From Minisyncoccota bacterium (GTDB lineage: Bacteria > Patescibacteriota > Minisyncoccia > Phycocordibacterales > Zambryskibacteraceae): a stretch of DNA of 64,000 nt. The stretch is taken from contig DATDVZ010000007.1 in the NCBI GenBank assembly GCA_036517475.1, positions 1,706 to 65,705 on the forward strand. The letters are read 5' to 3'. The translations under genes were made by a program, and so were the position numbers. A model generated the notes under the pieces. It was not told the DNA's origin. It searched no databases and was given only the letters and a program-made list of their open reading frames with translations. Of this stretch, positions 16,699-63,590 are shown one piece after another (the stretch's first letter is position 1; each line of letters starts with the position of its first letter).

Positions 16699-17319
16699 CT
16701 ATATTTTCTCGTAAAATACGGCTTTCCCTTTTATTCCAACTTGTCTTATCCTCCCCTCACTCTCCAACATTGAAAGATATCTTGTGGCGGTAGCATCAGA
16801 GACATGCAAAAGCTTCTCTACTTCATCGTTCGTGATCCTTGTTCGCTTCGCAAATAATTCCATAATTTTTTCAATTTTTTTTCTCTTCCTTGCCCGAATT
16901 ACATTTCCGGCTTTAGTAAGAAGTTCGCGAACTGGATTTCGAGTAAACGGCTCAATTGGTGGGAATTGAGCCGTTTGATTTAAAACCGGAGGTGTTTCCT
17001 TGGGTAGCGGAGAGGACAGAAGTAAATCCTCAGATTTTTCTTCAGTATTTTCAGGGGCTGTAGTTTCTGCAGGTGCTGTCGCATCACCCCCTGAAACCAC
17101 TTCCGTGGTTTCAGGGGGTATGTTTTCATTTATCGCATCAACCGGCACATCAACTGTTTCAGAACTTGCTTGTGGTGAGTTAATCGAATCCACCTGCGGT
17201 AAGCTTGTCGAATCCACCTGTGGTGAGCTAGTCGAATCCACTTGCGTCTCCGCAGGCACTTCAGGAATCACAGTAATAGGATTTTGATCAGAATTTTGAT
17301 TTTCTGGTTCATTAGTCAT
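16699..17319 (-). CDS. winged-helix DNA-binding protein with N-terminal tandem peptide repeats
   Basis: Repeats VDSTSSPQ/VDSTSLPQ/VDSINSPQ; C-terminus EVEKLLHVSDATATRYLSMLESEGRIRQ typical wHTH. Confidence 0.45.
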   Translation of the reverse strand: MTNEPENQNSDQNPITVIPEVPAETQVDSTSSPQVDSTSLPQVDSINSPQASSETVDVPVDAINENIPPETTEVVSGGDATAPAETTAPENTEEKSEDLLLSSPLPKETPPVLNQTAQFPPIEPFTRNPVRELLTKAGNVIRARKRKKIEKIMELFAKRTRITNDEVEKLLHVSDATATRYLSMLESEGRIRQVGIKGKAVFYEKI

Positions 17320-18134: not shown

Positions 18135-18258
18135 TACCCCTCCTTTTTAGATATCTTAAACTAATTTAAAACAATCCCCCAATTTTGTCAAAAAATTTTT
18201 TAGAATTTTGATTCTCTTATTCGTCTAGCAAGATCAAATTATATCAGTCCACAAATCT

Positions 18259-18286
18259 ATTCTCTTATTCTCGAGAATAAGAGAAT
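18259..18286. repeat. 28-bp perfect palindrome ATTCTCTTATTCTCGAGAATAAGAGAAT, copy A (plus conserved flank to 18310)
   Basis: Exact repeat of 19550-19577; flank TTGGCAAAGATTATCAGCG also shared. Confidence 0.8.
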
Positions 18287-18303
18287 AGATTTGGCAAAGA
18301 TTA

Positions 18304-18642: not shown

Positions 18643-18689
18643 AAATTTAGTATAGCAAAACTGCCTCGTCTTAACTTAAGACTTTTAAT

Positions 18690-18848
18690 ATAGACCCTCG
18701 GGGCAAGCCCCGAGGTAATTAATACCGAGCTCATTCCATTCGCACTGAAGCGCGGCGAAGCCGCGCGGTATTAAACCTATATTAGCTCCTCGGCTCGGAA
18801 GTAAAAAAGTTTACTTTCTTACTTCTCTCGCTCTACGTCGCTAATAAA
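18690..18848 (+). repeat. structured GC-rich intergenic repeat, family R, copy 1
   Basis: ATAGACCCTCGGGGCAAGCCCCGAGG hairpin, TAATACCG...CGGTATTA enclosing GCGCGGCGAAGCCGCGC hairpin, conserved 3' module ...TCTCGCTCTACGTCGCTAATAA; near-identical ends to 26594-26756 (inverted) and 49098-49252. Confidence 0.8.
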
Positions 18849-18881
18849 AAAACCCCTCCTTATAAATGAGGGGGTGTGGGA

Positions 18882-19502: not shown

Positions 19503-19549
19503 AACCCTAGCATTTTTACATTAATTTTTAAAGCCCTCACTACAAAACC

Positions 19550-19577
19550 ATTCTCTTATTCTCGAGAATAAGAGAAT
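19550..19577. repeat. 28-bp perfect palindrome, copy B (about 45 nt upstream of HD gene)
   Basis: Identical to copy A; shared flanks CACTACAAA (5') and GATTTTGCAAAGATTATCAGCG (3'). Confidence 0.8.
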
Positions 19578-19676
19578 GGATTTTGCAAAGATTATCAGCG
19601 ATACTGGCTCAAGCAACACTAGCCCATTCCGGTTTTCTTAAGAAAACCGGAATTGATTTTAAAATAATCATTCCAG

Positions 19677-23811: not shown

Positions 23812-23901
23812 AAATTTTCAAAAAAACTCTAGCATTTTTAACCCGTCATCGCCACTCTCCATTGCGGACAAGTCTTATTTTTTATACCCCACTACAAATT
23901 T

Positions 23902-23929
23902 ATTCTCTTATTCTCGAGAATACAAGAAT
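23902..23929. repeat. degenerate copy C of the 28-bp palindrome (ATTCTCTTATTCTCGAGAATACAAGAAT)
   Basis: Left arm identical, right arm 2 mismatches; same 5' flank ACTACAAAT; sits between divergent genes 23811(-) and 24082(+). Confidence 0.7.
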
Positions 23930-24081
23930 GGTTTAAATCATCAAAATTGCACTTCATAAAGAATTCATTTTTATACTATGAAATGATTATTATTTTGTTA
24001 TAGTGTTGTCATAATGCGTTAATGTAATCGTCATTATAAAAGTGCGTTATTTAATTATTTATCATTTATAAAATCAAGAAT

Positions 24082-26593: not shown

Positions 26594-26756
26594 GTTTATT
26601 AGCGACGTAGAGCGAGAGAGGTAAAAAAGTAAACTTTTTTACTTCCGAGCCGAGGAGCTAATATAGGTTTAATACCGCCTGTCTTTGTCGCGCTTTTAGT
26701 GCGAGCGATAGGGAGTTCGGTATTAATTACCTCGGGGCTTTGCCCCGAGGGTCTAT
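26594..26756 (-). repeat. structured GC-rich intergenic repeat, family R, copy 2 (inverted)
   Basis: Reverse complement matches copy 1 over both terminal modules with a divergent central hairpin; 3' end of element lies about 20 nt from ATL gene ATG. Confidence 0.8.
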
Positions 26757-26836
26757 ATCCTGCCATAAGTAGTTACCTTTCCTCTGGGAATTCTTAAAGC
26801 CATTATAAGAACCCTTTCATTAAAACTGAGCATCTT

Positions 26837-41282: not shown

Positions 41283-41479
41283 TTTTCACTCCTTCCTTGT
41301 TTGGTCATATGTTCAAGAACGTTTACTAAAATGGAAACTACCATTTTAGTTTTTAAAAGTCAACCCCGTCAAATAATTCGCTTTGCGAATTCCTGCGAAG
41401 CGGGATTTAACAGGGTCAAGCCTAGAGTAGGAACAATGAATAAAGAGTGAGGAATAAAAAAATGAACCTTTTGGGTTCA

Positions 41480-44387: not shown

Positions 44388-44729
44388 TTAAACTGGATAC
44401 TTCGGTGGTAAACCTATATCAACTCTTAATTCATTCACTATATTTTTATAATACCCCATATCTTCATCTTCAATTTTACCCCCTAAAACACCGCCAATAA
44501 TGTGCTCTATTTCAGAAATAGTCAAAATCTGAATAATTAGGTTGCGCCTTTCTACTCTGCTTTTAGCCCCCTCCAAAAGATCTAAATACTCATTTGCCTC
44601 ACTTTCAATAACTTCCTTGACATATCTTTTCGCTATCTCTCTTGGCTCATCCCCAGAACTGGGTATTTCGTCTGGATTTTCACTCATAATATTTATTAAT
44701 TGTATAATAACACGAAATGCCTTACTCAA
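44388..44729 (-). CDS. hypothetical protein
   Basis: 113-aa ORF. Confidence 0.4.
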   Translation of the reverse strand: MSKAFRVIIQLINIMSENPDEIPSSGDEPREIAKRYVKEVIESEANEYLDLLEGAKSRVERRNLIIQILTISEIEHIIGGVLGGKIEDEDMGYYKNIVNELRVDIGLPPKYPV

Positions 44730-45589
44730 TCCGTGACTTAAAACTTGAAGAATTCCCCCCTTTGCTAAAGGAAATTCCAGATCCTCCTAAGAAACTTTTT
44801 CTGGCGGGAAGTCTGCCAAAAGAAGAAAATAAAATTTTATGTATTGTAGGTTCGCGAAAATATACTCAATATGGTAAGGAAATCTGTGAGAAATTGATTA
44901 GTGAAATTAAAGGTTATCCGATAACGATAGTATCTGGTCTTGCTTTGGGTACTGACTCAATTGCTCATAAAGCAGCCATGAAAAATGGTTTACAAACCGT
45001 TGCCCTACCCGGTTCAGGATTGAATTCTAAAAATCTTTACCCGAGTTCTCATCTACCTCTTGCGGAAGAAATTATTGAAAATGGCGGCGGGCTTTTATCA
45101 GAATTTGATCCTGATTTCAAAGCCACTCTCTGGAGTTTTCCACAAAGAAACAGAATTATGGCAGGAATTTCCCATGCAGTTTTAATAATTGAGGCAGAAA
45201 TTAAATCGGGAACTCTAATTACTTCTAGGCTCGCTACAGAATACAACCGTGATGTTATGACCGTACCCGGATCAATCTTTTCAAAAAATTCAGAAGGTCC
45301 GCATATGCTGATTAAACTTGGGGCAACGCCAGTAACTTCAGGAGAAGATATTTTAAAAGTACTAAATATAGAAACTTCTATAACTAAGAATAATCAATCA
45401 TTCGATATATCGAATGAAATGCTTTCAGAGGATGAAAAGAAAATTGTTGAACTTCTGCATAACCCAGTGACACGAGATGATCTAATCCGCCAAAGCGGCA
45501 TGCCTGCAAGTAAAATCAATATGATAATTACTGCAATGGAGATAAAAGGAATTATCACTGAAAGTGTGGGGGAAATCCGAATTAATTAA
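44717..45589 (+). CDS. dprA: DNA processing protein A
   Basis: Rossmann-like DprA core (ILCIVGSRKYTQYG, GLALGTDSIAHKAA, LLSEFDPD, SGTLITSRLA) and C-terminal wH. Confidence 0.8.
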   Translation: MPYSIRDLKLEEFPPLLKEIPDPPKKLFLAGSLPKEENKILCIVGSRKYTQYGKEICEKLISEIKGYPITIVSGLALGTDSIAHKAAMKNGLQTVALPGSGLNSKNLYPSSHLPLAEEIIENGGGLLSEFDPDFKATLWSFPQRNRIMAGISHAVLIIEAEIKSGTLITSRLATEYNRDVMTVPGSIFSKNSEGPHMLIKLGATPVTSGEDILKVLNIETSITKNNQSFDISNEMLSEDEKKIVELLHNPVTRDDLIRQSGMPASKINMIITAMEIKGIITESVGEIRIN

Positions 45590-45639
45590 AAAATGTTCCA
45601 CTTGGTGGTGAAACCGCCACGTGGCTGCTGTGGTAAGTA

Positions 45640-45667
45640 TTGACTTTTTTTGTTATTAATGTATATT
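45640..45667 (+). promoter_or_regulatory. sigma70-like promoter candidate
   Basis: TTGACT-16nt-TATATT about 30 nt upstream of 45699 ORF. Confidence 0.35.
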
Positions 45668-45698
45668 AACTAAAGAAACCCAGACAGAGGAGTTTAAA

Positions 45699-46004
45699 AT
45701 GAAACTCAGCCCCAGTGAGCTAGATTTGCTTACTGAAAAGAAGGTTGTAAAAACGAATAACAAAAAGAGAAACTTGCTTTTAATTGGAGTTGGTGTGGCG
45801 GCTTTAGTCTTTGGGACACCCGTCGGTTGGCTCATCTTCGGAGCACTTTGGCCGGCGATGTCATTTTTGGTAAGTGCTGTCACTGGACTTGATCCCAGAC
45901 TTGCCTCAACGATTGGGCTTTTTCTTTCTTTCATCGTTTTTGGCGCCGGGGTTCTGACCTTATATAAAATCGTAAGAAAAAAGTTATCTCGAACGCAAGC
46001 TTAG
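45699..46004 (+). CDS. small membrane protein
   Basis: 101 aa, 3 TM helices. Confidence 0.4.
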   Translation: MKLSPSELDLLTEKKVVKTNNKKRNLLLIGVGVAALVFGTPVGWLIFGALWPAMSFLVSAVTGLDPRLASTIGLFLSFIVFGAGVLTLYKIVRKKLSRTQA

Positions 46005-49000: not shown

Positions 49001-49097
49001 CAAAATTAAGAGATTAAAATCCAAAAGAGGAAAATCTAAAATTTAGAATACGTGAAACAAAAACCCGCATTTCGCGGGTTTTTGTTTTGCATGCAAT

Positions 49098-49252
49098 ATA
49101 GTCCCTCGTGGCAAGCCCCGAGGTAATTACGGAACTCGCTTCGCTTATCCATTTAGCGCGGCAAGCCGCGCAGTATTGGACTATATTAGCTCCTCGGCTC
49201 GGAAATGGAAAAGTAAAACTCTTCCATTTCTCTCGCTCTACGTCGCTAATAA
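49098..49252 (+). repeat. structured GC-rich intergenic repeat, family R, copy 3
   Basis: ATAGTCCCTCGTGGCAAGCCCCGAGG..GCGCGGCAAGCCGCGC..TATATTAGCTCCTCGGCTCGGAA..TCTCGCTCTACGTCGCTAATAA. Confidence 0.8.
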
Positions 49253-50140: not shown

Positions 50141-50380
50141 ATGGAACCCCATCAAAAAGATCGTGAAAAAACAGCTATCTTTGAAAGAGCCTGTGCGGGT
50201 TGCAGAGCCGTTCTGCAGATCAATCCACAAAACATCAACCCAAGGATCCCGTATATTCTATGCCCTACCTGCGGACTTGAGTGTATGATTCCTCAGGACG
50301 CTATTTATATGGCCGAGCTGATTCTTAAGGAAAAAAGAAGAAAGTACGGCCGACGAAACAAAGCTATAAATCCCGAATAG
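50141..50380 (+). CDS. small zinc-ribbon protein
   Basis: CxxC...CxxC; terminator AAATCCCGAATAGGGATTTTTTT at 50368-50390. Confidence 0.4.
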   Translation: MEPHQKDREKTAIFERACAGCRAVLQINPQNINPRIPYILCPTCGLECMIPQDAIYMAELILKEKRRKYGRRNKAINPE

Positions 50381-50388
50381 GGATTTTT

Positions 50389-50700
50389 TTATAAACGACG
50401 TAGAGCGAGAGAAATGAAAAATTCTTATTTTTCATTTCCGAGCCGAGGAGTTTATATAGTATCCAATTATATAAACGACGTAGAGTGAAAAAGCGAAAAC
50501 ATGGAGCTTTTGCAAGGTCGGAGCACGACGGTGCGAGACAGGATCGAAAGATTTTTCAGTAGAAAAATACTTTTGATAGAGAAGTGAGAAAGTTTACTTT
50601 CTCACTTACGAGCCGAGGTGAGGAAGCGAATACATGGAGCCCATTCGGGTCTGAAAGACCCTCAGGGTCTTAAACGACTTCGCAAGACTTTGAGCTCCGA
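50389..50700 (-). repeat. family R repeats, two partial/variant copies in tandem (inverted orientation)
   Basis: TTATAAACGACGTAGAGCGAGAG...CCGAGCCGAGGAG (rc of 3' module) at 50389-50466 and a second rearranged copy 50471-50700. Confidence 0.6.
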
Positions 50701-57107: not shown

Positions 57108-57568
57108 ACAAAGGAATAACTCTAATTGAGACTTTAATCTATATTGCGCTTTTCATTATAATAATGGGCGGCGCCCTTTTTGCTTCCTATTCAATTATTC
57201 TCTCACAGGAGTCAAACAAAAATAAAATAATCCTTCAGGAGGAGGCGAATTTCATTTATCGTAAATTCACTTGGGCATTAAACGGTTCTGTAATTTCCCA
57301 GATCAGCACTACTACCCTGAAATTAATAAAAAATTCTGGTGAGCAAATTAATTTTAGTTATGAAAGTCCTTATCTTTATATAGAGATTTTACCTGAGGGC
57401 AGATTACCGCTAAATTCCGGGGTTGTATCTGTATCAGATGTTGAGTTTAGAAAAACGACGGAGTTTGGTTATCCTGACCGAATTAGTATTGATTTTATTC
57501 TTACTGTATTTGACGGAGGAAGAAGTAGTTCAGAAAATTTTAGTTTCTGGAAATATTTAAGACAATGA
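57104..57568 (+). CDS. pilin-like protein
   Basis: GITLIETLIYIALFIIIMGG. Confidence 0.55.
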   Translation: MNKGITLIETLIYIALFIIIMGGALFASYSIILSQESNKNKIILQEEANFIYRKFTWALNGSVISQISTTTLKLIKNSGEQINFSYESPYLYIEILPEGRLPLNSGVVSVSDVEFRKTTEFGYPDRISIDFILTVFDGGRSSSENFSFWKYLRQ

Positions 57569-58080
57569 AAATAAACTTACAACAGATAACAGACAACAAA
57601 CAACTTGGACAGCAAAATAATACTGCCTGCCCCGTTAAAGGACTGCCCTGCCGAAGGCAGTCCGTACGGACCATGGGGCAGATTTCCTTTAACGGGGGGT
57701 TTACAGCTTTAATGAGCGCTATAGTGCTTTCATTTCTTCTTTTAACTGTGGCTGTGACCATCGGAACAGTGGGCTTAAATAACCGACTCAACATTTCTGA
57801 AACTGAATTTAAGGAAAGAAGTCTAAATCTTGCAGAAGGCTGTGTAGATATTGCCATATCAAGCATAAACGACGGTTTCTTCCCAAGCAATCTAACAATA
57901 ACAATAGGCGAAAATTCCGAAGATAAATGCATCATTGTTTCTGCTTTGCATGGAGTTCCGGCAGCCAATTTATATGAGATAAAGACTAGGTCAGATATTC
58001 AAAACGCAGTTACTAATCTCAAAGTCGTACTGGATAAAAATAAAAATGTAATCACATGGGAAGAAGTTTCCAATTTCTGA
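57565..58080 (+). CDS. pilin-like protein
   Basis: GGFTALMSAIVLSFLLLTVAV. Confidence 0.5.
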   Translation: MKINLQQITDNKQLGQQNNTACPVKGLPCRRQSVRTMGQISFNGGFTALMSAIVLSFLLLTVAVTIGTVGLNNRLNISETEFKERSLNLAEGCVDIAISSINDGFFPSNLTITIGENSEDKCIIVSALHGVPAANLYEIKTRSDIQNAVTNLKVVLDKNKNVITWEEVSNF

Positions 58081-58443: not shown

Positions 58444-59967
58444 ATGTCAGGCCCAGAGGAAATTATAAGTTTAATGACAGAGCAAAGAGAAGACAAAGTT
58501 CTGATTGAAAAAGCGTACAAGTTTTCAGAACTTGCTCACAGTGATCAGAAACGTCTTTCAGGAGATGACTATTTTATTCATTTGGTTGAAACCGCAAAAA
58601 TTCTTGCAGAATTTGGTATGGGAGCAGTGGTTGTCGCCGCCGGACTCTTGCATGATTCACTTGAGGATGGAAAAGTGACTGCAAACGAACTGAAAAAAGA
58701 ATTCGGCGCTGAAATTCTATTTTTAGTGGAGGGAGTTACAAAGCTTGGAAAATTAAGATACAGGGGGGCAGACAGGCATAATGAAAGTCTGCGTAAACTT
58801 TTTGTGGCAATGTCACAGGATATAAGGGTGCTGATGATTAAATTTGCTGACAGACTTCATAATATGAGAACTCTTTCTCATGTGGATAAGGACAAGCAAA
58901 AACGAATCGCCGGAGAAACCCTTGAGATTTTTGCTCCCATTGCCTACCGGCTGGGTATCCGCAAACTCTCTCGTGAACTTGAGGATCTTTCTTTCCCCTA
59001 CGTTTACCCTAAAGAGTATGAGAGGGTAAAAGCAGTCACGAAGGAAAAACATGAGAAAAATGTTAAAAACCTTGAGGATTTCCTGAAGTCCATAAAAAAA
59101 GCTCTGGCAAAAGAGGGTCTAATCAATGTTAGAACTGAATACAGAGTCAAGGGTTTGTATAGTTTGTATAAAAAACTTCAGAATAAGGAGCATAATGAAG
59201 AAAATATTTATGACATTATGGCGCTGCGTATTATAGTGCCGGAATTAACAGACTGTTATAGGGCTCTGGGTATTATTCACGGCAACTGGCAGCCGCTTCC
59301 AGGCAGAATCAAGGACTACATAGCCCTGCCAAAACCAAACGGTTATCAGTCAATACATACGACAGTTTTTACAGGTAATGGCTCACTTGTTGAAATTCAA
59401 ATCAGAACTGCCGACATGCACGAACATGCCGAATATGGCATTGCCTCGCACATTTCCTACAAAGAAGGCAAGAGGGGTGGCAGTCCGGAAAATCTCAATT
59501 GGATAAGTACACTTTTACCAAAACACAACTTCAAGGAGGTTATTGATCAGGAGTCAGTTCCAGCTCTTATTTCAAAGTTTCAGGATATTCCTCATTGGAT
59601 AAAAGATTTGGTGAAATATAGGCAAAGTACGGATAATCATGAAATATTCAACGAGGATTTAAAAAATGATTTTTTTCAACATAGAATTTTCGTTTTTACT
59701 CCGCTAGGAGATGTTGTTGATCTACCAAAAGACTCAACCCCCATCGATTTTGCCTATTCAATTCACTCGGATATCGGCGATCATATGTGGGGAGCAAAAA
59801 TTAACGGTAAACTTGTATCCCTTGACACCAAACTTCAAAGCGGCGATATTGTTGAAATTATTACAAAATCTTCTGCCAAGCCCACAAGTAAATGGCTTAA
59901 TAGTATTAAAACCACCCTTGCCCGCAGACAAATCCGCGGCGCCATCCTCAAGGAAAAACTCAAATAA
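58444..59967 (+). CDS. bifunctional (p)ppGpp synthetase/hydrolase, RelA/SpoT family (short, HD + synthetase + TGS)
   Basis: HD motif HLVETAKILAEFGMGAVVVAAGLLHDSLED; synthetase RVKGLYSLYKKL, DIMALRIIV; TGS domain. Confidence 0.8.
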   Translation: MSGPEEIISLMTEQREDKVLIEKAYKFSELAHSDQKRLSGDDYFIHLVETAKILAEFGMGAVVVAAGLLHDSLEDGKVTANELKKEFGAEILFLVEGVTKLGKLRYRGADRHNESLRKLFVAMSQDIRVLMIKFADRLHNMRTLSHVDKDKQKRIAGETLEIFAPIAYRLGIRKLSRELEDLSFPYVYPKEYERVKAVTKEKHEKNVKNLEDFLKSIKKALAKEGLINVRTEYRVKGLYSLYKKLQNKEHNEENIYDIMALRIIVPELTDCYRALGIIHGNWQPLPGRIKDYIALPKPNGYQSIHTTVFTGNGSLVEIQIRTADMHEHAEYGIASHISYKEGKRGGSPENLNWISTLLPKHNFKEVIDQESVPALISKFQDIPHWIKDLVKYRQSTDNHEIFNEDLKNDFFQHRIFVFTPLGDVVDLPKDSTPIDFAYSIHSDIGDHMWGAKINGKLVSLDTKLQSGDIVEIITKSSAKPTSKWLNSIKTTLARRQIRGAILKEKLK

Positions 59968-60014: not shown

Positions 60015-60034
60015 TACTATGATATATCATAGTA
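60015..60034. repeat. 20-bp perfect palindrome TACTATGATATATCATAGTA (copy 1; 30-bp exact repeat with 61782-61811)
   Basis: Identical copy inside miaA; both within 1.8 kb of parB. Confidence 0.7.
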
Positions 60035-60069
60035 AAATAAAAAATTAAGACCTTAACTAAATAATAAAC

Positions 60070-61104
60070 TTAAACAGTAAAGTTTTTTATTGAATAAATA
60101 TCTTCTTCATCTTTCTTTTTCTCATCAATGGATCTATCATCTTCGAGCGTTAAATTCACTTCAGAATTTTGGGTCTTGTCCGAATCTGGGGTTGCTTGCC
60201 CTGTTAAATAATCCTGCTTTTGCAGGATTCCAGCTTCGCTGGATTTAACAGGGTTAATTGGTTGTAAGTTGTTAGTTGTAGGTTGCTGCAATATCTGAAT
60301 TAAACTTTTCAAATCCTCATTTGAAAAGAAATCAATCAAAATTTTTCCTCCCACTTCCTTTCTTTCAATCTGCACCCTTGTGCCGAGTGCCTCCTTTAGC
60401 TGCTCCTCCAAATCAATAGTTTCTGGGTCAATAGCATGTTCTTTTTTGCGGACTTTGTCATAGGCAATCCGGCGGGCAATTCCTTCCGCCTCGCGAACAG
60501 TAAGTCTTTTAAGAATTATTTCCTTAAACAAAACTCCCCTCTCATCCGGCCTGTCATTTAACATCATAAGCGGACGGGCATGACCTTCGGTGATCTTACC
60601 TCCCGAAAGTGCGTCCTGCATGTCTGAAGGAAGCGTCAGTAGTCGAAGACTGTTTGAAACATACTCGCGGCTTTTGCCGATTTTTTGGGCAATTAACTGA
60701 TGAGTAAAACCAAATTCATTTGCAAGCCTGTCAAAAGCCCTTGCTCGATCAATAGGATTTAGGTCTTCTCTTTGCAAGTTCTCAATAATTGAGAGCTCAA
60801 GCTTCATTAGGTCAGTGTCATCTCCGGTTTTTATGAGACACGGCACCTGGGAAAGGCCTGCCATTTTGGAGGCGCGCAGTCTTCTTTCTCCGGCAATAAG
60901 CTCGTACTTAACACCCATTCCGCCTTCTGGCTTTTCAAATTCTTTACGAGTTACAACTAATGCCTGAAGGACTCCGTACTGGCGGATTGAATCAGAGAGG
61001 CTCTGCATTTCAGCTTCGCCGAATTCACGGCGTGGTTGAAATGGGTTTGGCTCAATCTTATCAACATCGATCCAGAAAACCGAATCATTTAAAAATTGGG
61101 ACAT
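60070..61104 (-). CDS. parB: chromosome partitioning protein ParB/Spo0J
   Basis: ParB box GERRLRA, HTH, KIEPNPFQPRR N-terminal motif. Confidence 0.8.
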   Translation of the reverse strand: MSQFLNDSVFWIDVDKIEPNPFQPRREFGEAEMQSLSDSIRQYGVLQALVVTRKEFEKPEGGMGVKYELIAGERRLRASKMAGLSQVPCLIKTGDDTDLMKLELSIIENLQREDLNPIDRARAFDRLANEFGFTHQLIAQKIGKSREYVSNSLRLLTLPSDMQDALSGGKITEGHARPLMMLNDRPDERGVLFKEIILKRLTVREAEGIARRIAYDKVRKKEHAIDPETIDLEEQLKEALGTRVQIERKEVGGKILIDFFSNEDLKSLIQILQQPTTNNLQPINPVKSSEAGILQKQDYLTGQATPDSDKTQNSEVNLTLEDDRSIDEKKKDEEDIYSIKNFTV

Positions 61105-61409
61105 GATGATTTTTCTTATGAACGAAGTGAATTATAAATAATCATCACCCCGTTGCAATTTTGCCGTAAAATTTCTTTATGCAGTGCGTGTGCCGAATAG
61201 GCATATACTTCTGTGGGCGTAGTGCTGTATGAATTATAAACAAACTGATTATACAAATGTATCATCCTCATTTAAATATTTGCAAAATTGCTATGGGGTT
61301 AAGTGCTAATCTCACTCTGTTATTATAATTTTAACACAACCGACAACAAACAACTTAAATATTGTTTCAAAATCAAAATTGTTGTAAGTTGTTAGTTGTT
61401 AGTTGATTT

Positions 61410-61492
61410 GCCGGGGTGGCGGAATGGCAGACGCGATGGACTCAAAATCCATTGTCCGCAAGGATGTGAGAGTTCGAGTCTCTCTCCCGGCA
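61410..61492 (+). tRNA. tRNA-Leu (anticodon CAA), type II with long variable arm
   Basis: Acceptor GCCGGGG/UCCCGGC, anticodon stem AUGGA/UCCAU loop CUCAAAA, variable arm UGUCCGCAAGGAUGU, T arm GAGAG-UUCGAGU-CUCUC. Confidence 0.7.
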
Positions 61493-61494
61493 TA

Positions 61495-62460
61495 ATGAAA
61501 CCCAAAATTCTCGTTATTGTAGGACCCACAGCCTCCGGGAAAAGCAATTTGGCTGTAAAATTGGCCCTTCGACTTCGCTCAGGGCAAGCTCAAAAAATTG
61601 GAATTAAGGGTGGAGAAATAATTTCTGCTGATTCAAGGCAGGTTTATAAAGGACTAAATCTTGGAACAGGAAAAATTACAAAAAAAGAAATGCGAGGTGT
61701 CCCTCACCATTTACTTGATATTATAGACCCGAGGAAATCATTTTCAGTCTTTGATTTTGTAAAAAAAGCCAATCACGCAATTACTATGATATATCATAGT
61801 AAAAAATTGCCCATAATCGTTGGCGGAACTGGATTTTATATTGATGCTTTAGTTTATGATCAGAAATTTCCCAATGTAAAAGCCAACTTAAAACTGCGAA
61901 AAAAACTTCAAAAAATGAGTGCTAGCGAGCTTTATAAAATTTTAAAAAAGAAAGACTTAGCAAGAGCAAAAAGTGTTGATAGAAATAATAAAGTGAGGCT
62001 TATAAGAGCATTGGAAATTGTGGAAAAACTCGGAAAAGTCCCCAAATTAACTAACAACTTACAACCAACAACTTACAACGCATTATTAATTGGGTTAAAA
62101 TCTAATAATGAAATTCTGCGAAAAAATATTCACAAGAGACTGATTCAAAGAATAAAAAAAGGAATGATAAAAGAGGTCAAAAAATTGCACTCTGGAGGTC
62201 TTTCATGGAAACGTATGGAAGAATTAGGGCTTGAGTACCGTTATATAACAAGATTTTTGCAAAATAAAATAACTAAAATAGAGATGTCAAATCAGCTTGA
62301 ATCGTCCATCTGGCAATACTCACGCCGGCAGATTACTTGGTTTAAAAGAAATAAGCAAATACTCTGGTTTAATCCGGAAGAGAAAAATTCAAGTAAGAAA
62401 ATCGAAGATGTTGTAAAAAAATTAGTCCTTGACAAAAATAAAAAAGACGATATACTATAA
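61495..62460 (+). CDS. miaA: tRNA dimethylallyltransferase
   Basis: P-loop GPTASGKS, ADSRQVYKGLNLGTGK; ORF-track N-terminal extension (from 61396) rejected because it reads through tRNA-Leu. Confidence 0.8.
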   Translation: MKPKILVIVGPTASGKSNLAVKLALRLRSGQAQKIGIKGGEIISADSRQVYKGLNLGTGKITKKEMRGVPHHLLDIIDPRKSFSVFDFVKKANHAITMIYHSKKLPIIVGGTGFYIDALVYDQKFPNVKANLKLRKKLQKMSASELYKILKKKDLARAKSVDRNNKVRLIRALEIVEKLGKVPKLTNNLQPTTYNALLIGLKSNNEILRKNIHKRLIQRIKKGMIKEVKKLHSGGLSWKRMEELGLEYRYITRFLQNKITKIEMSNQLESSIWQYSRRQITWFKRNKQILWFNPEEKNSSKKIEDVVKKLVLDKNKKDDIL

Positions 62461-62695: not shown

Positions 62696-62746
62696 CAGAT
62701 CTTTTTGTTTGAAACAAAGAAGTAATTTGATACGATACAACACATT

Positions 62747-62778
62747 GGGAGCTTAGTTAAGTGGTATAACTGCGGTCT
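62747..62778 (+). pseudogene. partial duplicate of tRNA-Trp 5' half (acceptor-D-anticodon stem region)
   Basis: GGGAGCTTAGTTAAGTGGTATAACTGCGGTCT matches 62803-62834 (GGGTGGTTAGTTAAGTGGTATAACTGCGGTCT) with 3 changes, then diverges. Confidence 0.6.
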
Positions 62779-62802
62779 AGTTAAAAAAATAAAGAAAAGT
62801 TT

Positions 62803-62873
62803 GGGTGGTTAGTTAAGTGGTATAACTGCGGTCTCCAAAACCGCTATCGAGGGTTCGATTCCTTCACCACCCG
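62803..62873 (+). tRNA. tRNA-Trp (anticodon CCA)
   Basis: Acceptor GGGUGGU/ACCACCC, D arm GUUA-AGUGGUA-UAAC, anticodon stem GCGGU/ACCGC loop CUCCAAA, T arm GAGGG-UUCGAUU-CCUUC. Confidence 0.7.
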
Positions 62874-63547: not shown

Positions 63548-63590
63548 CTAATCTATTCTAATGTTCTTAAGAACATTAGAATAGATTAAT
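63548..63590. promoter_or_regulatory. 36-bp perfect palindrome ATCTATTCTAATGTTC-TTAA-GAACATTAGAATAGAT
   Basis: Between stop of 63586..63840 and start of rpmG; operator or bidirectional terminator-like hairpin. Confidence 0.4.

Follow-up and report, generated by a model that had tools for sequence, protein, structure and literature searches.

The stretch studied here is a window of 64,000 nucleotides (64 kb) from a Minisyncoccota bacterium of the Patescibacteria (assembly GCA_036517475.1, contig DATDVZ010000007.1, positions 1,706 to 65,705); all coordinates below refer to this window unless a locus is named. Around its relA, parB, tRNA-Leu and miaA genes, an earlier note made from the sequence alone had pointed out two kinds of short repeat: a perfect palindrome, taken for a candidate parS centromere or for the borders of an excisable segment, and a 17-mer described as inserted in-frame in two genes. 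The genes concerned, and the palindromes found in or near them, are the following.

45398-45417, no strand assigned: third palindrome of the family, TCATTCGATATATCGAATGA, in-frame in the linker of dprA (peptide SFDISNE)
58444-59967, plus strand: relA, recognized by Pfam
60015-60034, no strand assigned: TACTATGATATATCATAGTA, a perfect 20-bp palindrome in the spacer (102 nt) that separates the relA and parB 3' ends
60070-61104, minus strand: parB, with the Pfam domains ParB_N, HTH_ParB and ParB_C and a clade-specific tail ending in DDR..YSIKNFTV
61409-61493, plus strand: tRNA-Leu(CAA), running directly into the miaA start codon
61495-62460, plus strand: miaA (isopentenyl pyrophosphate transferase), recognized by Pfam, holding the second palindrome site and a heptamer tract
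61781-61802, no strand assigned: perfect 22-bp palindrome within miaA, read as ACT ATG ATA TAT CAT AGT, i.e. TMIYHS

The 20-bp palindrome is present in exactly two, fully identical copies, at 60015-60034 and 61782-61801, as had been reported, and the Pfam gene calls confirm that one is intergenic, following relA, and the other lies within the miaA coding sequence. A search with TACTATGATATATCATAGTA at up to three mismatches returned the same two matches only (0.00 expected in the 64-kb window), as did a search with its 18-mer core at up to five mismatches. The copy in miaA can be extended to a perfect 22-mer (61781-61802). The longer string that was thought to be repeated around the palindrome is indeed repeated, but over 24 nt (TACTATGATATATCATAGTAAAA) rather than 30, with divergence beyond. 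The palindrome in dprA, TCATTCGATATATCGAATGA, has the same centre as the other two window sites, GATATATC, and different arms.

The relA-parB-miaA locus is identical among strain-level contigs. An identical ParB protein is encoded on 14 contigs, from Rifle-aquifer and other assemblies, and its relatives carry the names Patescibacteria or Paceibacterota. In a relative with 80% identity (locus L011) the relA/parB spacer contains CAGATTATGATATATCATAATCTG, in which the arm changes with respect to the window site are symmetric. In two of the strain assemblies (L004 and L009) the contig ends inside the first palindrome, at window position ~60028, and short-read assemblies appear to break at the GATATATC palindrome.

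A scan of species-representative genomes (one per species) with the pattern AYTATGATATATCATART gave at least 117 loci, which were assigned to groups from their record names. Among the matches listed, 88 loci belong to Patescibacteria, the candidate phyla radiation (CPR), with up to 8-9 sites per genome, and are spread over Giovannoni-, Zambryski-, Yanofsky-, Kaiser-, Adler-, Azam- and Taylorbacteria, Paceibacterota, Woesebacteria and Saccharibacteria; the other 29 are mostly an all-A/T variant in A+T-rich genomes, as expected by chance. The CPR sites among these matches (n=106) are strictly symmetric: 70 have AC..GT, 36 have AT..AT and none is asymmetric, compared to 6 asymmetric sites among the 29 chance matches outside the CPR. 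They all have one and the same 14-nt centre, and changes in the two pairs beyond it are symmetric throughout, which also holds for variants outside the search pattern (GC..GC, GG..CC, GT..AC and TACG..CGTA). The commonest form of the family is cACTATGATATATCATAGTg, with C..G as the most frequent flank pair, and what all loci have in common is GATATATC flanked by perfect arms, 3 to 20 bp long, arms of variable length reaching up to 46 bp. At least four further complementary base pairs beyond the 18-mer are present in 35% of the sites, against 0.4% expected, and past the perfect arms the pairing stops abruptly, with no tolerance of G.U pairs or bulges. Sites are found on many contigs, and on single contigs as far as 150-260 kb apart; the intergenic ones occur in all gene orientations, their arm length is equal in convergent and divergent spacers, and T-runs are rare at them.

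An unusual concentration was seen in locus L019 (3800-5200), where a non-coding stretch of 1.4 kb, next to recG and a gene for a TrpR-like protein (see below), contains about eight family palindromes, two of which have a centre or arms that are symmetrically altered. A separate conserved perfect palindrome, ACCTGCCTGCCGGCAGGCAGGT, is present in two Parcubacteria (L014, 9888-9909, where it lies 90 nt upstream of parB, and L256, 13990-14015).

The genomic neighbour that stands out is a gene of about 140 codons that is bracketed by two sites, one located 3-30 nt before its start codon and the second 5-76 nt after its stop codon. Most members of this protein family match the Pfam domain Trp_repressor (PF01371), with 32-51 bits at a cut-off of 27, and Trp_repressor accounts for 13 of the 58 genes that have their 5' end facing a site, the next family, KsgA, for three. 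Using tblastn the TrpR-like gene was found beside the motif in ~16 motif-selected loci. In an independent test, homologues were picked by protein similarity alone and their contigs fetched, and all four proved to be bracketed by the palindrome. One of these protein-selected loci, L252, encodes a diverged protein, and all seven sites of its genome have changed to the co-varied form CACTTTGATATATCAAAGTG. The protein aligns to E. coli TrpR over the helix-turn-helix, where T81 and R84 are kept and the pattern LLTxxER + G-x-x-T-I-x-R is seen, and it matches the TrpR-like structures 3FRW, 3KOR and 3G1C. Other genes flanking or containing sites encode KsgA, Fmt, MiaA, glycosyltransferases, Mur ligases and aminoacyl-tRNA synthetases. 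Many of the TrpR-like genes are known from contigs of only 1-3 kb; in one locus (L119, 3432-3460) three copies of the 10-nt tandem repeat AACACTTATA separate the TrpR-like stop codon from the palindrome downstream.

The closest characterized systems are E. coli TrpR with the trp operator and YerC of Bacillus subtilis, which is HisR, a histidine-dependent repressor of the TrpR family that is often autoregulated (PMC9413887). Its operator is a 20-bp palindrome, cacTTTAnnnnnnTAAAgtg, with the layout cacTTTA-N6-TAAAgtg, and 3G1C is the HisR protein of Eubacterium eligens (PMC9413887). The partner protein of the Patescibacterial palindromes resembles HisR and TrpR in its Trp_repressor domain and matching structures, the motif in its variants cACTATGATATATCATAGTg, cacTTTgatatatcAAAgtg and CACTTTGATATATCAAAGTG has the 20-bp layout and the outer bases of the HisR operator, and a site lies directly upstream of the protein's own gene. 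There are clear differences as well. HisR has fewer than 100 residues, whereas the Patescibacterial protein has about 140, including a C-terminal extension; the sites lack his or trp gene neighbours; a second site follows the gene and another is kept inside miaA; and the sites, which are perfect, show extensions and a symmetric variation of their arms.

Because the motif shares layout and outer bases with the HisR operator, we propose that the palindrome is the DNA site of this ~140-residue helix-turn-helix protein of the TrpR family, related to YerC/HisR, which would bind as a dimer. It would repress its own gene, as one of the sites covers the -10/start region 3-30 nt before the ATG, and would also occupy a small set of other sites, such as the fixed codons of miaA and, in some lineages, a further site just 3' of parB. 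The three sites of the window, in dprA, in the relA/parB spacer and in miaA, would then be repressor or roadblock sites. A diverged HisR/TrpR-like protein is most likely what recognizes the palindrome; the analysis shows the motif family with its symmetry, its link to the TrpR-like gene and its constant position in miaA, and from these we infer binding and an effect on transcription. The GATATATC-centred palindromes look like a conserved Patescibacterial motif family, apparently an undescribed variant of the TrpR-family operator; a literature search for the motif string gave no match, and no published description of the family was found. The general idea put forward earlier, that a palindrome present in both a spacer and an open reading frame resembles the site of a dimeric DNA-binding protein, is right in kind.

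The site inside miaA merits separate consideration. The palindrome has only one stop-free reading frame, so that the peptide TMIYHS is forced whenever it lies in a gene. The choice of host gene and the position within it are not forced in this way. The same codons of miaA carry the site in six loci of the scan (L018, L034, L046, L080, L099 and L128), in the window and in L011, which has one change (AGT to AAT); together with arm variants at the same position in L255 and L256, this amounts to ten lineages. In seven of eight genomes 18 nt are identical, while neighbouring synonymous positions in the adjoining, amino-acid-invariant PI(I/V)VGGTG block differ freely. The palindrome adds no residues to MiaA. 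Of the 120 closest MiaA homologues, nine have TMIYHS and one has TMIYHN; in this otherwise hypervariable place no hexapeptide is more frequent than TMIYHS. Two further peptides recur there, VPIYRY and RYIVIK, and both are encoded by GATATATC-centred palindromes, GTACCGATATATCGGTAC (within a 34-bp perfect palindrome) and ATTACGATATATCGTAAT, respectively. In the close relatives L012 and L014, miaA is without the site. A kept position with drifting arms and occasional loss points to selection on the DNA and not on the protein. Elsewhere in the same gene, an 11-residue in-frame insert (window ~61564-61611, RLRSGQAQKIGIKG) is absent from L012, L014 and E. coli, and at the same place L011 (~1150-1200) has a nested GC hairpin, TTCTGCCC..CCAGCCtcgGGCTGG..GGGGCAGAA.

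Several observations weigh against the operator interpretation. The TrpR-like proteins score 20-32 bits with the YerC/YecD NCBIfam model TIGR02531, i.e. below its cut-off of 42, and no histidine or tryptophan genes are among the top families flanking or holding sites. No TrpR-like gene was found in the 64-kb window itself, where the two sites near parB lie between two 3' ends and within a gene, neither of them upstream of a gene, which is unusual for a classical operator; about one quarter of the intergenic CPR sites are located between convergent genes. Finally, a dimeric operator leaves the constant perfection, the long arm extensions and the mixture of arm types within a genome unaccounted for. 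The operator reading explains neither the perfect symmetry of the family nor the fixed site in miaA. The perfection of the sites and the abrupt end of pairing would fit either a cruciform requirement or homogenization of the two arms by intrastrand template switching, as in quasi-palindrome correction.

The second kind of repeat, the 17-mer, is part of tracts of 7-nt tandem units, which are located as follows.

57587-57700, plus strand: heptamer-like tract (57587-57606) and three-way-junction hairpin (57630-57697), at the start of a pilin-like open reading frame
60261-60285, minus strand: heptamer tract in the variable C-terminal linker of ParB, CAACCTA CAACTAA CAACTTA CAAC on the coding strand (QQPTTNNLQP)
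61334-61360 and 61381-61405, plus strand: two inverted heptamer tracts, forming a hairpin that ends 3 nt before tRNA-Leu(CAA)
62048-62079, plus strand: heptamer tract in a variable loop of MiaA, AACTAAC AACTTAC AACCAAC AACTTAC AAC (LTNNLQPTTYN)

The 17-mer TTGTAAGTTGTTAGTTG was said to occur at three places, and it is exact at 60262 and 61382, but the miaA copy (62048-62064, minus strand) matches at 16 of 17 positions; the one-base-shifted GTTGTAAGTTGTTAGTT is exact at 60261-60277, 61381-61397 and 62049-62065 (minus strand). Counting overlapping matches, eight were found against 0.27 expected. The copies in ParB and MiaA are in the same frame and encode T-N-N-L-Q-P, with 20 identical nt common to both, and the same nucleotides are indeed translated in two unrelated proteins. 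All 17-mer sites consist of units (GTTGTNA)n, equal to (TNACAAC)n on the other strand, with three units in the ParB linker, three upstream of tRNA-Leu and four in the MiaA loop. The inverted partner at 61334-61360 and the tract at 57587-57606 had not been noticed before, nor had the heptamer structure of the tracts and the dprA palindrome.

In unit content the tracts differ strongly from those of the closest species, L011, which has a related tract, QKPTTNNQQPTT, in the ParB linker, a single unit, AAGTTGTGATTT, upstream of tRNA-Leu, and a different heptamer repeat, (CATAGAA)x4, in the same loop of MiaA. All 20 aligned ParB relatives have a variable linker followed by a conserved end, DDR..YS(V/I)KNF(S/T)(I/V), which implies that the ParB tail is real protein. 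TNNLQP is unique to the window among the 120 closest MiaA homologues, the tract adding about three residues to a variable loop. The description of the 17-mer as inserted does not hold, as the ParB linker is variable in all relatives and has a tract in the 80%-identical relative already, and MiaA gains only those few residues.

In a metagenome scan the 17-mer was found on at least 118 contigs. Among the matches listed, the G+C content ranges from 0.27 to 0.66, and 98 of 125 tracts have at least three units, mainly GTTGTTA and GTTGTAA; an inverted partner tract is nearby in ~18%, and in ~10 of 118 loci a tract lies at most ~110 nt upstream of a tRNA gene, in several cases at 14-27 nt. The chance that two tracts have this particular 17-mer in common, computed from the unit counts, is ~0.2 per register.

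Heptanucleotide repeats are given as the commonest long simple-sequence repeats in bacteria (Mrazek 2007, as quoted in PMC4679880) and are tolerated at the periphery of proteins (PMC4679880). Direct repeats of TAACTGA in Beggiatoaceae, Cyanobacteria and Bacteroidetes are found just upstream of genes, and in open reading frames only peripherally (PMC4679880). The tracts described here are similar in consisting of 2-5 tandem 7-nt units, in being mostly intergenic and near gene starts, and in entering open reading frames only at tolerant or peripheral places, and the window unit CAACTNA is one or two bases removed from TAACTGA. They differ in their unit family, (GTTGTNA)n, here in a Patescibacterium, and in often forming hairpins from inverted pairs, often beside small GC hairpins.

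We therefore read the 17-mer as an ordinary slippage repeat, with a role in cis or templated copying as a secondary possibility. Slippage during replication would have generated the tracts on the spot, in regions that can accommodate additional sequence, namely the disordered linker of ParB, a surface loop of MiaA, and the DNA immediately preceding a tRNA gene. Three units are 21 nt, or seven codons, which allows a tract to stay in frame, and sharing of the 17-mer follows from the fact that the family has essentially one variable position per unit. Some findings speak against slippage: ten strain-level contigs showed no differences in tract length, a segment of 4.6 kb holds five of the six tracts of the window, and the 20 identical in-frame nt in ParB and MiaA could also reflect local templated copying. 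Taking both parts together, we consider it moderately probable, a little better than an even chance, that the palindrome is the site of a TrpR/HisR-like protein and that the 17-mer belongs to heptamer repeats generated by slippage.

Rather improbable is that the heptamer tracts are functional cis-elements, for instance arrays in tRNA or mRNA leaders to which an RNA- or DNA-binding protein attaches, and that the coding copies were derived from the ParB tract by templated copying. The clustering of tracts in the window and the identical stretch in ParB and MiaA fit this idea, as do the recurrence of one unit family in very different genomes, the tracts upstream of tRNA genes in about ten of the 118 listed loci, and the inverted partners in ~18%, which would form a long hairpin as upstream of tRNA-Leu here; a related proposal has been made for the TAACTGA repeats (PMC4679880). 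However, the nearest relative does not have the tracts conserved in corresponding positions, no protein emerged as a candidate for binding them, they are only modestly enriched close to tRNA genes, and sharing of the 17-mer is expected by chance in this family.

With regard to the palindromes, it is unlikely that they act as hairpins or cruciforms in themselves, for instance by affecting the processing or stability of RNA, by terminating transcription in an unconventional way, or by serving as single-stranded DNA signals in replication or transformation, in which case the TrpR-like gene would merely be a frequent neighbour. The strictly symmetric variation, with perfect sites and arms variable up to 46 bp, the presence of sites in every intergenic orientation including between convergent genes, and the predicted hairpin fold (z = -4 to -5.6) would agree with such a role. 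Yet the pairing ends abruptly without G.U or bulge tolerance, and the rarity of T-runs and the orientation-independent arm length do not fit RNA hairpins or intrinsic terminators. Moreover, the tight bracketing of one gene family and the change of all motifs in L252 together with the diverged protein are left unexplained, and the 20-bp layout matches a known TrpR-family operator (PMC9413887).

Some more specific candidates were rejected. An intrinsic terminator is contradicted by an A+T-rich stem, followed by AAAATAAAAAA, and by the rare T-runs at CPR sites, and an RNA hairpin by the lack of G.U continuation beyond the perfect arms. The LexA/SOS box, suggested by likeness to TACTG(TA)5CAGTA and by uvrB, ruvA, recG and uvrD near some sites, has no LexA-type gene associated with it, and the hairpin-bracketed ~140-residue gene is not a transposase of the IS200/RAYT (REP-associated tyrosine transposase) type, as Pfam identifies it as Trp_repressor. 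Searches of viral contigs gave no matches, against a viral origin. With Rfam, at both the gathering threshold and a permissive one, only tRNAs were found and no family over the palindrome, heptamer tracts or three-way-junction hairpins.

It is very improbable that, as proposed in the earlier note, ParB of this lineage binds the palindrome as its parS centromere. Like parS, it is a palindromic site of ~16-20 bp that may lie in open reading frames, and two identical copies flank parB, both kept in L011. In a Kaiserbacteria locus, GATATATC palindromes lie 50 nt 3' of parB and one is in miaA; in all, three lineages (the window, L011 and L256) have a site just 3' of parB. Canonical parS, at up to two mismatches, was not found in ~1 Mb of CPR sequence with eight parB loci, and all three window sites would lie within 17 kb of a possible origin, marked by a gene-strand switch and a GC-skew minimum at ~44.7 kb. 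The palindrome shows no resemblance to the parS consensus TGTTNCACGTGAAACA, however, for which the best window matches have three mismatches, i.e. chance level, and it does not co-occur with parB across genomes. Motif loci have parB in the vicinity only if miaA is there too, and in such loci no site adjoins parB; three of the eight parB loci have no GATATATC palindrome except that in miaA and one has none at all. The bracketed gene is TrpR-like and not parB, and close relatives have different arms in spite of an unchanging recognition helix in ParB, GKSREYVSN. As far as could be judged, the wide dispersal of the sites, over many contigs and at distances of up to 150-260 kb within single ones, is what the earlier note had named as refuting a parS role; a search for DnaA boxes gave no cluster. 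Across genomes the motif tracks the TrpR-like gene and miaA instead of parB. A k-mer search for another palindrome common to the eight parB loci returned only tRNA and coding conservation.

As to the possible origin itself, genes in the window flip from nearly all minus to nearly all plus at the serS/dprA divergence (~44400-46000), where the cumulative GC skew also has its minimum, and this could be the replication origin. Neither a dnaA gene nor a cluster of DnaA boxes accompanies it, however.

Least credible of all is that the repeats mark mobile DNA, whether as a 1.75-kb excisable segment or as inserts of the palindrome and 17-mer resembling repetitive extragenic palindromic (REP) sequences, miniature inverted-repeat transposable elements (MITEs) or Rickettsia palindromic elements (RPEs): the window is rich in dispersed palindromic repeat families, with a GC-rich three-way-junction hairpin added in-frame and lineage-specifically at the ParB heptamer tract (three window copies) and an 11-residue hairpin-encoding insert in miaA, but the palindrome adds no length to MiaA, there is no target-site duplication, transposase or recombinase nearby and no match in viral contigs, ten strain-level assemblies are collinear with none lacking the segment, other lineages have the miaA copy only, and heptamer tracts at the same positions differ between relatives in unit number and sequence, which fits slippage and not insertion. 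No terminal repeats were seen at the 20-bp palindrome, and in L011 both sites are retained at a distance of 2.0 kb, with one more gene in the interval.

Neither the palindrome nor the 17-mer but the three-way-junction element of the ParB tail is the true in-frame insertion of the region. The copies of this element in ParB and in an intergenic region are listed here; the remaining one lies at the start of the pilin-like open reading frame, as given above.

41364-41415, no strand assigned: intergenic third copy of the hairpin element CCCYGTYAAA...TTTRACRGGG, whose inner hairpins co-vary
60199-60253, no strand assigned: three-way-junction element CCCTGTTAAAT[AATCCTGCttttGCAGGATT][CCAGCttcgCTGG]ATTTAACAGGG, 55 nt, translated in the ParB tail

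The ParB-tail element adjoins the heptamer tract and has a predicted fold of -33 kcal/mol (z = -7.2); about 21 nt of it are missing in L011. The inner hairpins of the two further window copies (41364-41415 and 57630-57697) co-vary, and no paired copy of the CCCYGTYAAA hairpin element was found in any other locus searched. RPEs are reported to be selfish palindromic DNA inserted in-frame in genes (Ogata et al. 2000). The ParB-tail hairpin and the 11-residue insert of miaA are similar to them in being lineage-specific, in-frame and structure-forming, the hairpin also being copied elsewhere in the window. However, the window elements are far shorter (~33-70 nt), with only three copies seen and none found in other loci, and the 20-bp palindrome itself is not an insertion.

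Patescibacteria make up a large share of bacterial diversity, are mostly uncultivated, and almost nothing is known of their gene regulation. A motif of 18-20 bp that Saccharibacteria and Parcubacteria have in identical form, that is tied to one small predicted DNA-binding protein and that occupies constant codons of miaA offers a testable regulator-site pair, all the more as genetically tractable Saccharibacteria now exist (PMC10633639). A broader and tentative view, to which we give a fairly low probability, is that the perfect GATATATC palindromes and the diverged HisR/TrpR-like protein constitute an undescribed phylum-wide cis-element system, or else a centromere-like or chromosome-organizing one. 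The former would place tRNA and rRNA modification, as well as the stringent-response/partition locus, under the influence of a small-molecule signal, through the fixed miaA site and those at relA/parB, ksgA and fmt, in organisms without amino-acid biosynthesis; the latter would act in a group in which no canonical parS was found near parB. The obligatory symmetry would then reflect recognition of a cruciform or palindrome-driven homogenization of the arms. On the practical side, a perfect palindrome beside parB need not be parS, and assemblers break contigs at this motif. The heptamer part is more ordinary, adding a new unit family and a Patescibacterial example to the known heptanucleotide repeats.

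Some further repeats of the window were observed. The first ~45 codons of the pilin-like open reading frame (57565-57700) consist of the heptamer tract and the three-way-junction hairpin, and the true start of the prepilin seems to be an internal ATG near 57673, after which GQISFNGG / FTALM is encoded, in which case the element at 57587-57700 may be a 5' leader instead of coding sequence. A repeat family of ~100 nt, 81-93% identical, in both orientations and with a GC hairpin part, CCCTCGGGGCAAGCCCCGAGG, looks MITE-like (18748-18857, 26595-26695, 49180-49252 and 50379-50460; also 18687-18721, 26713-26758 and 49095-49129). Very long perfect palindromes, of 42, 32, 28 and 40 bp, are located at 18252-18293, 19548-19579, 23894-23934, 19626-19653 and 63549-63588; three of them have the core ATTCTCTTATTCTCGAGAATAAGAGAAT, and the 40-mer lies between an 84-residue gene and rpmG. 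The 5' half of tRNA-Trp is duplicated (62745-62778 versus 62801-62834, 94% identical), 56 nt upstream of the real gene. Finally, a 24-nt tandem repeat at 17171-17242 has three copies with 79-88% identity.

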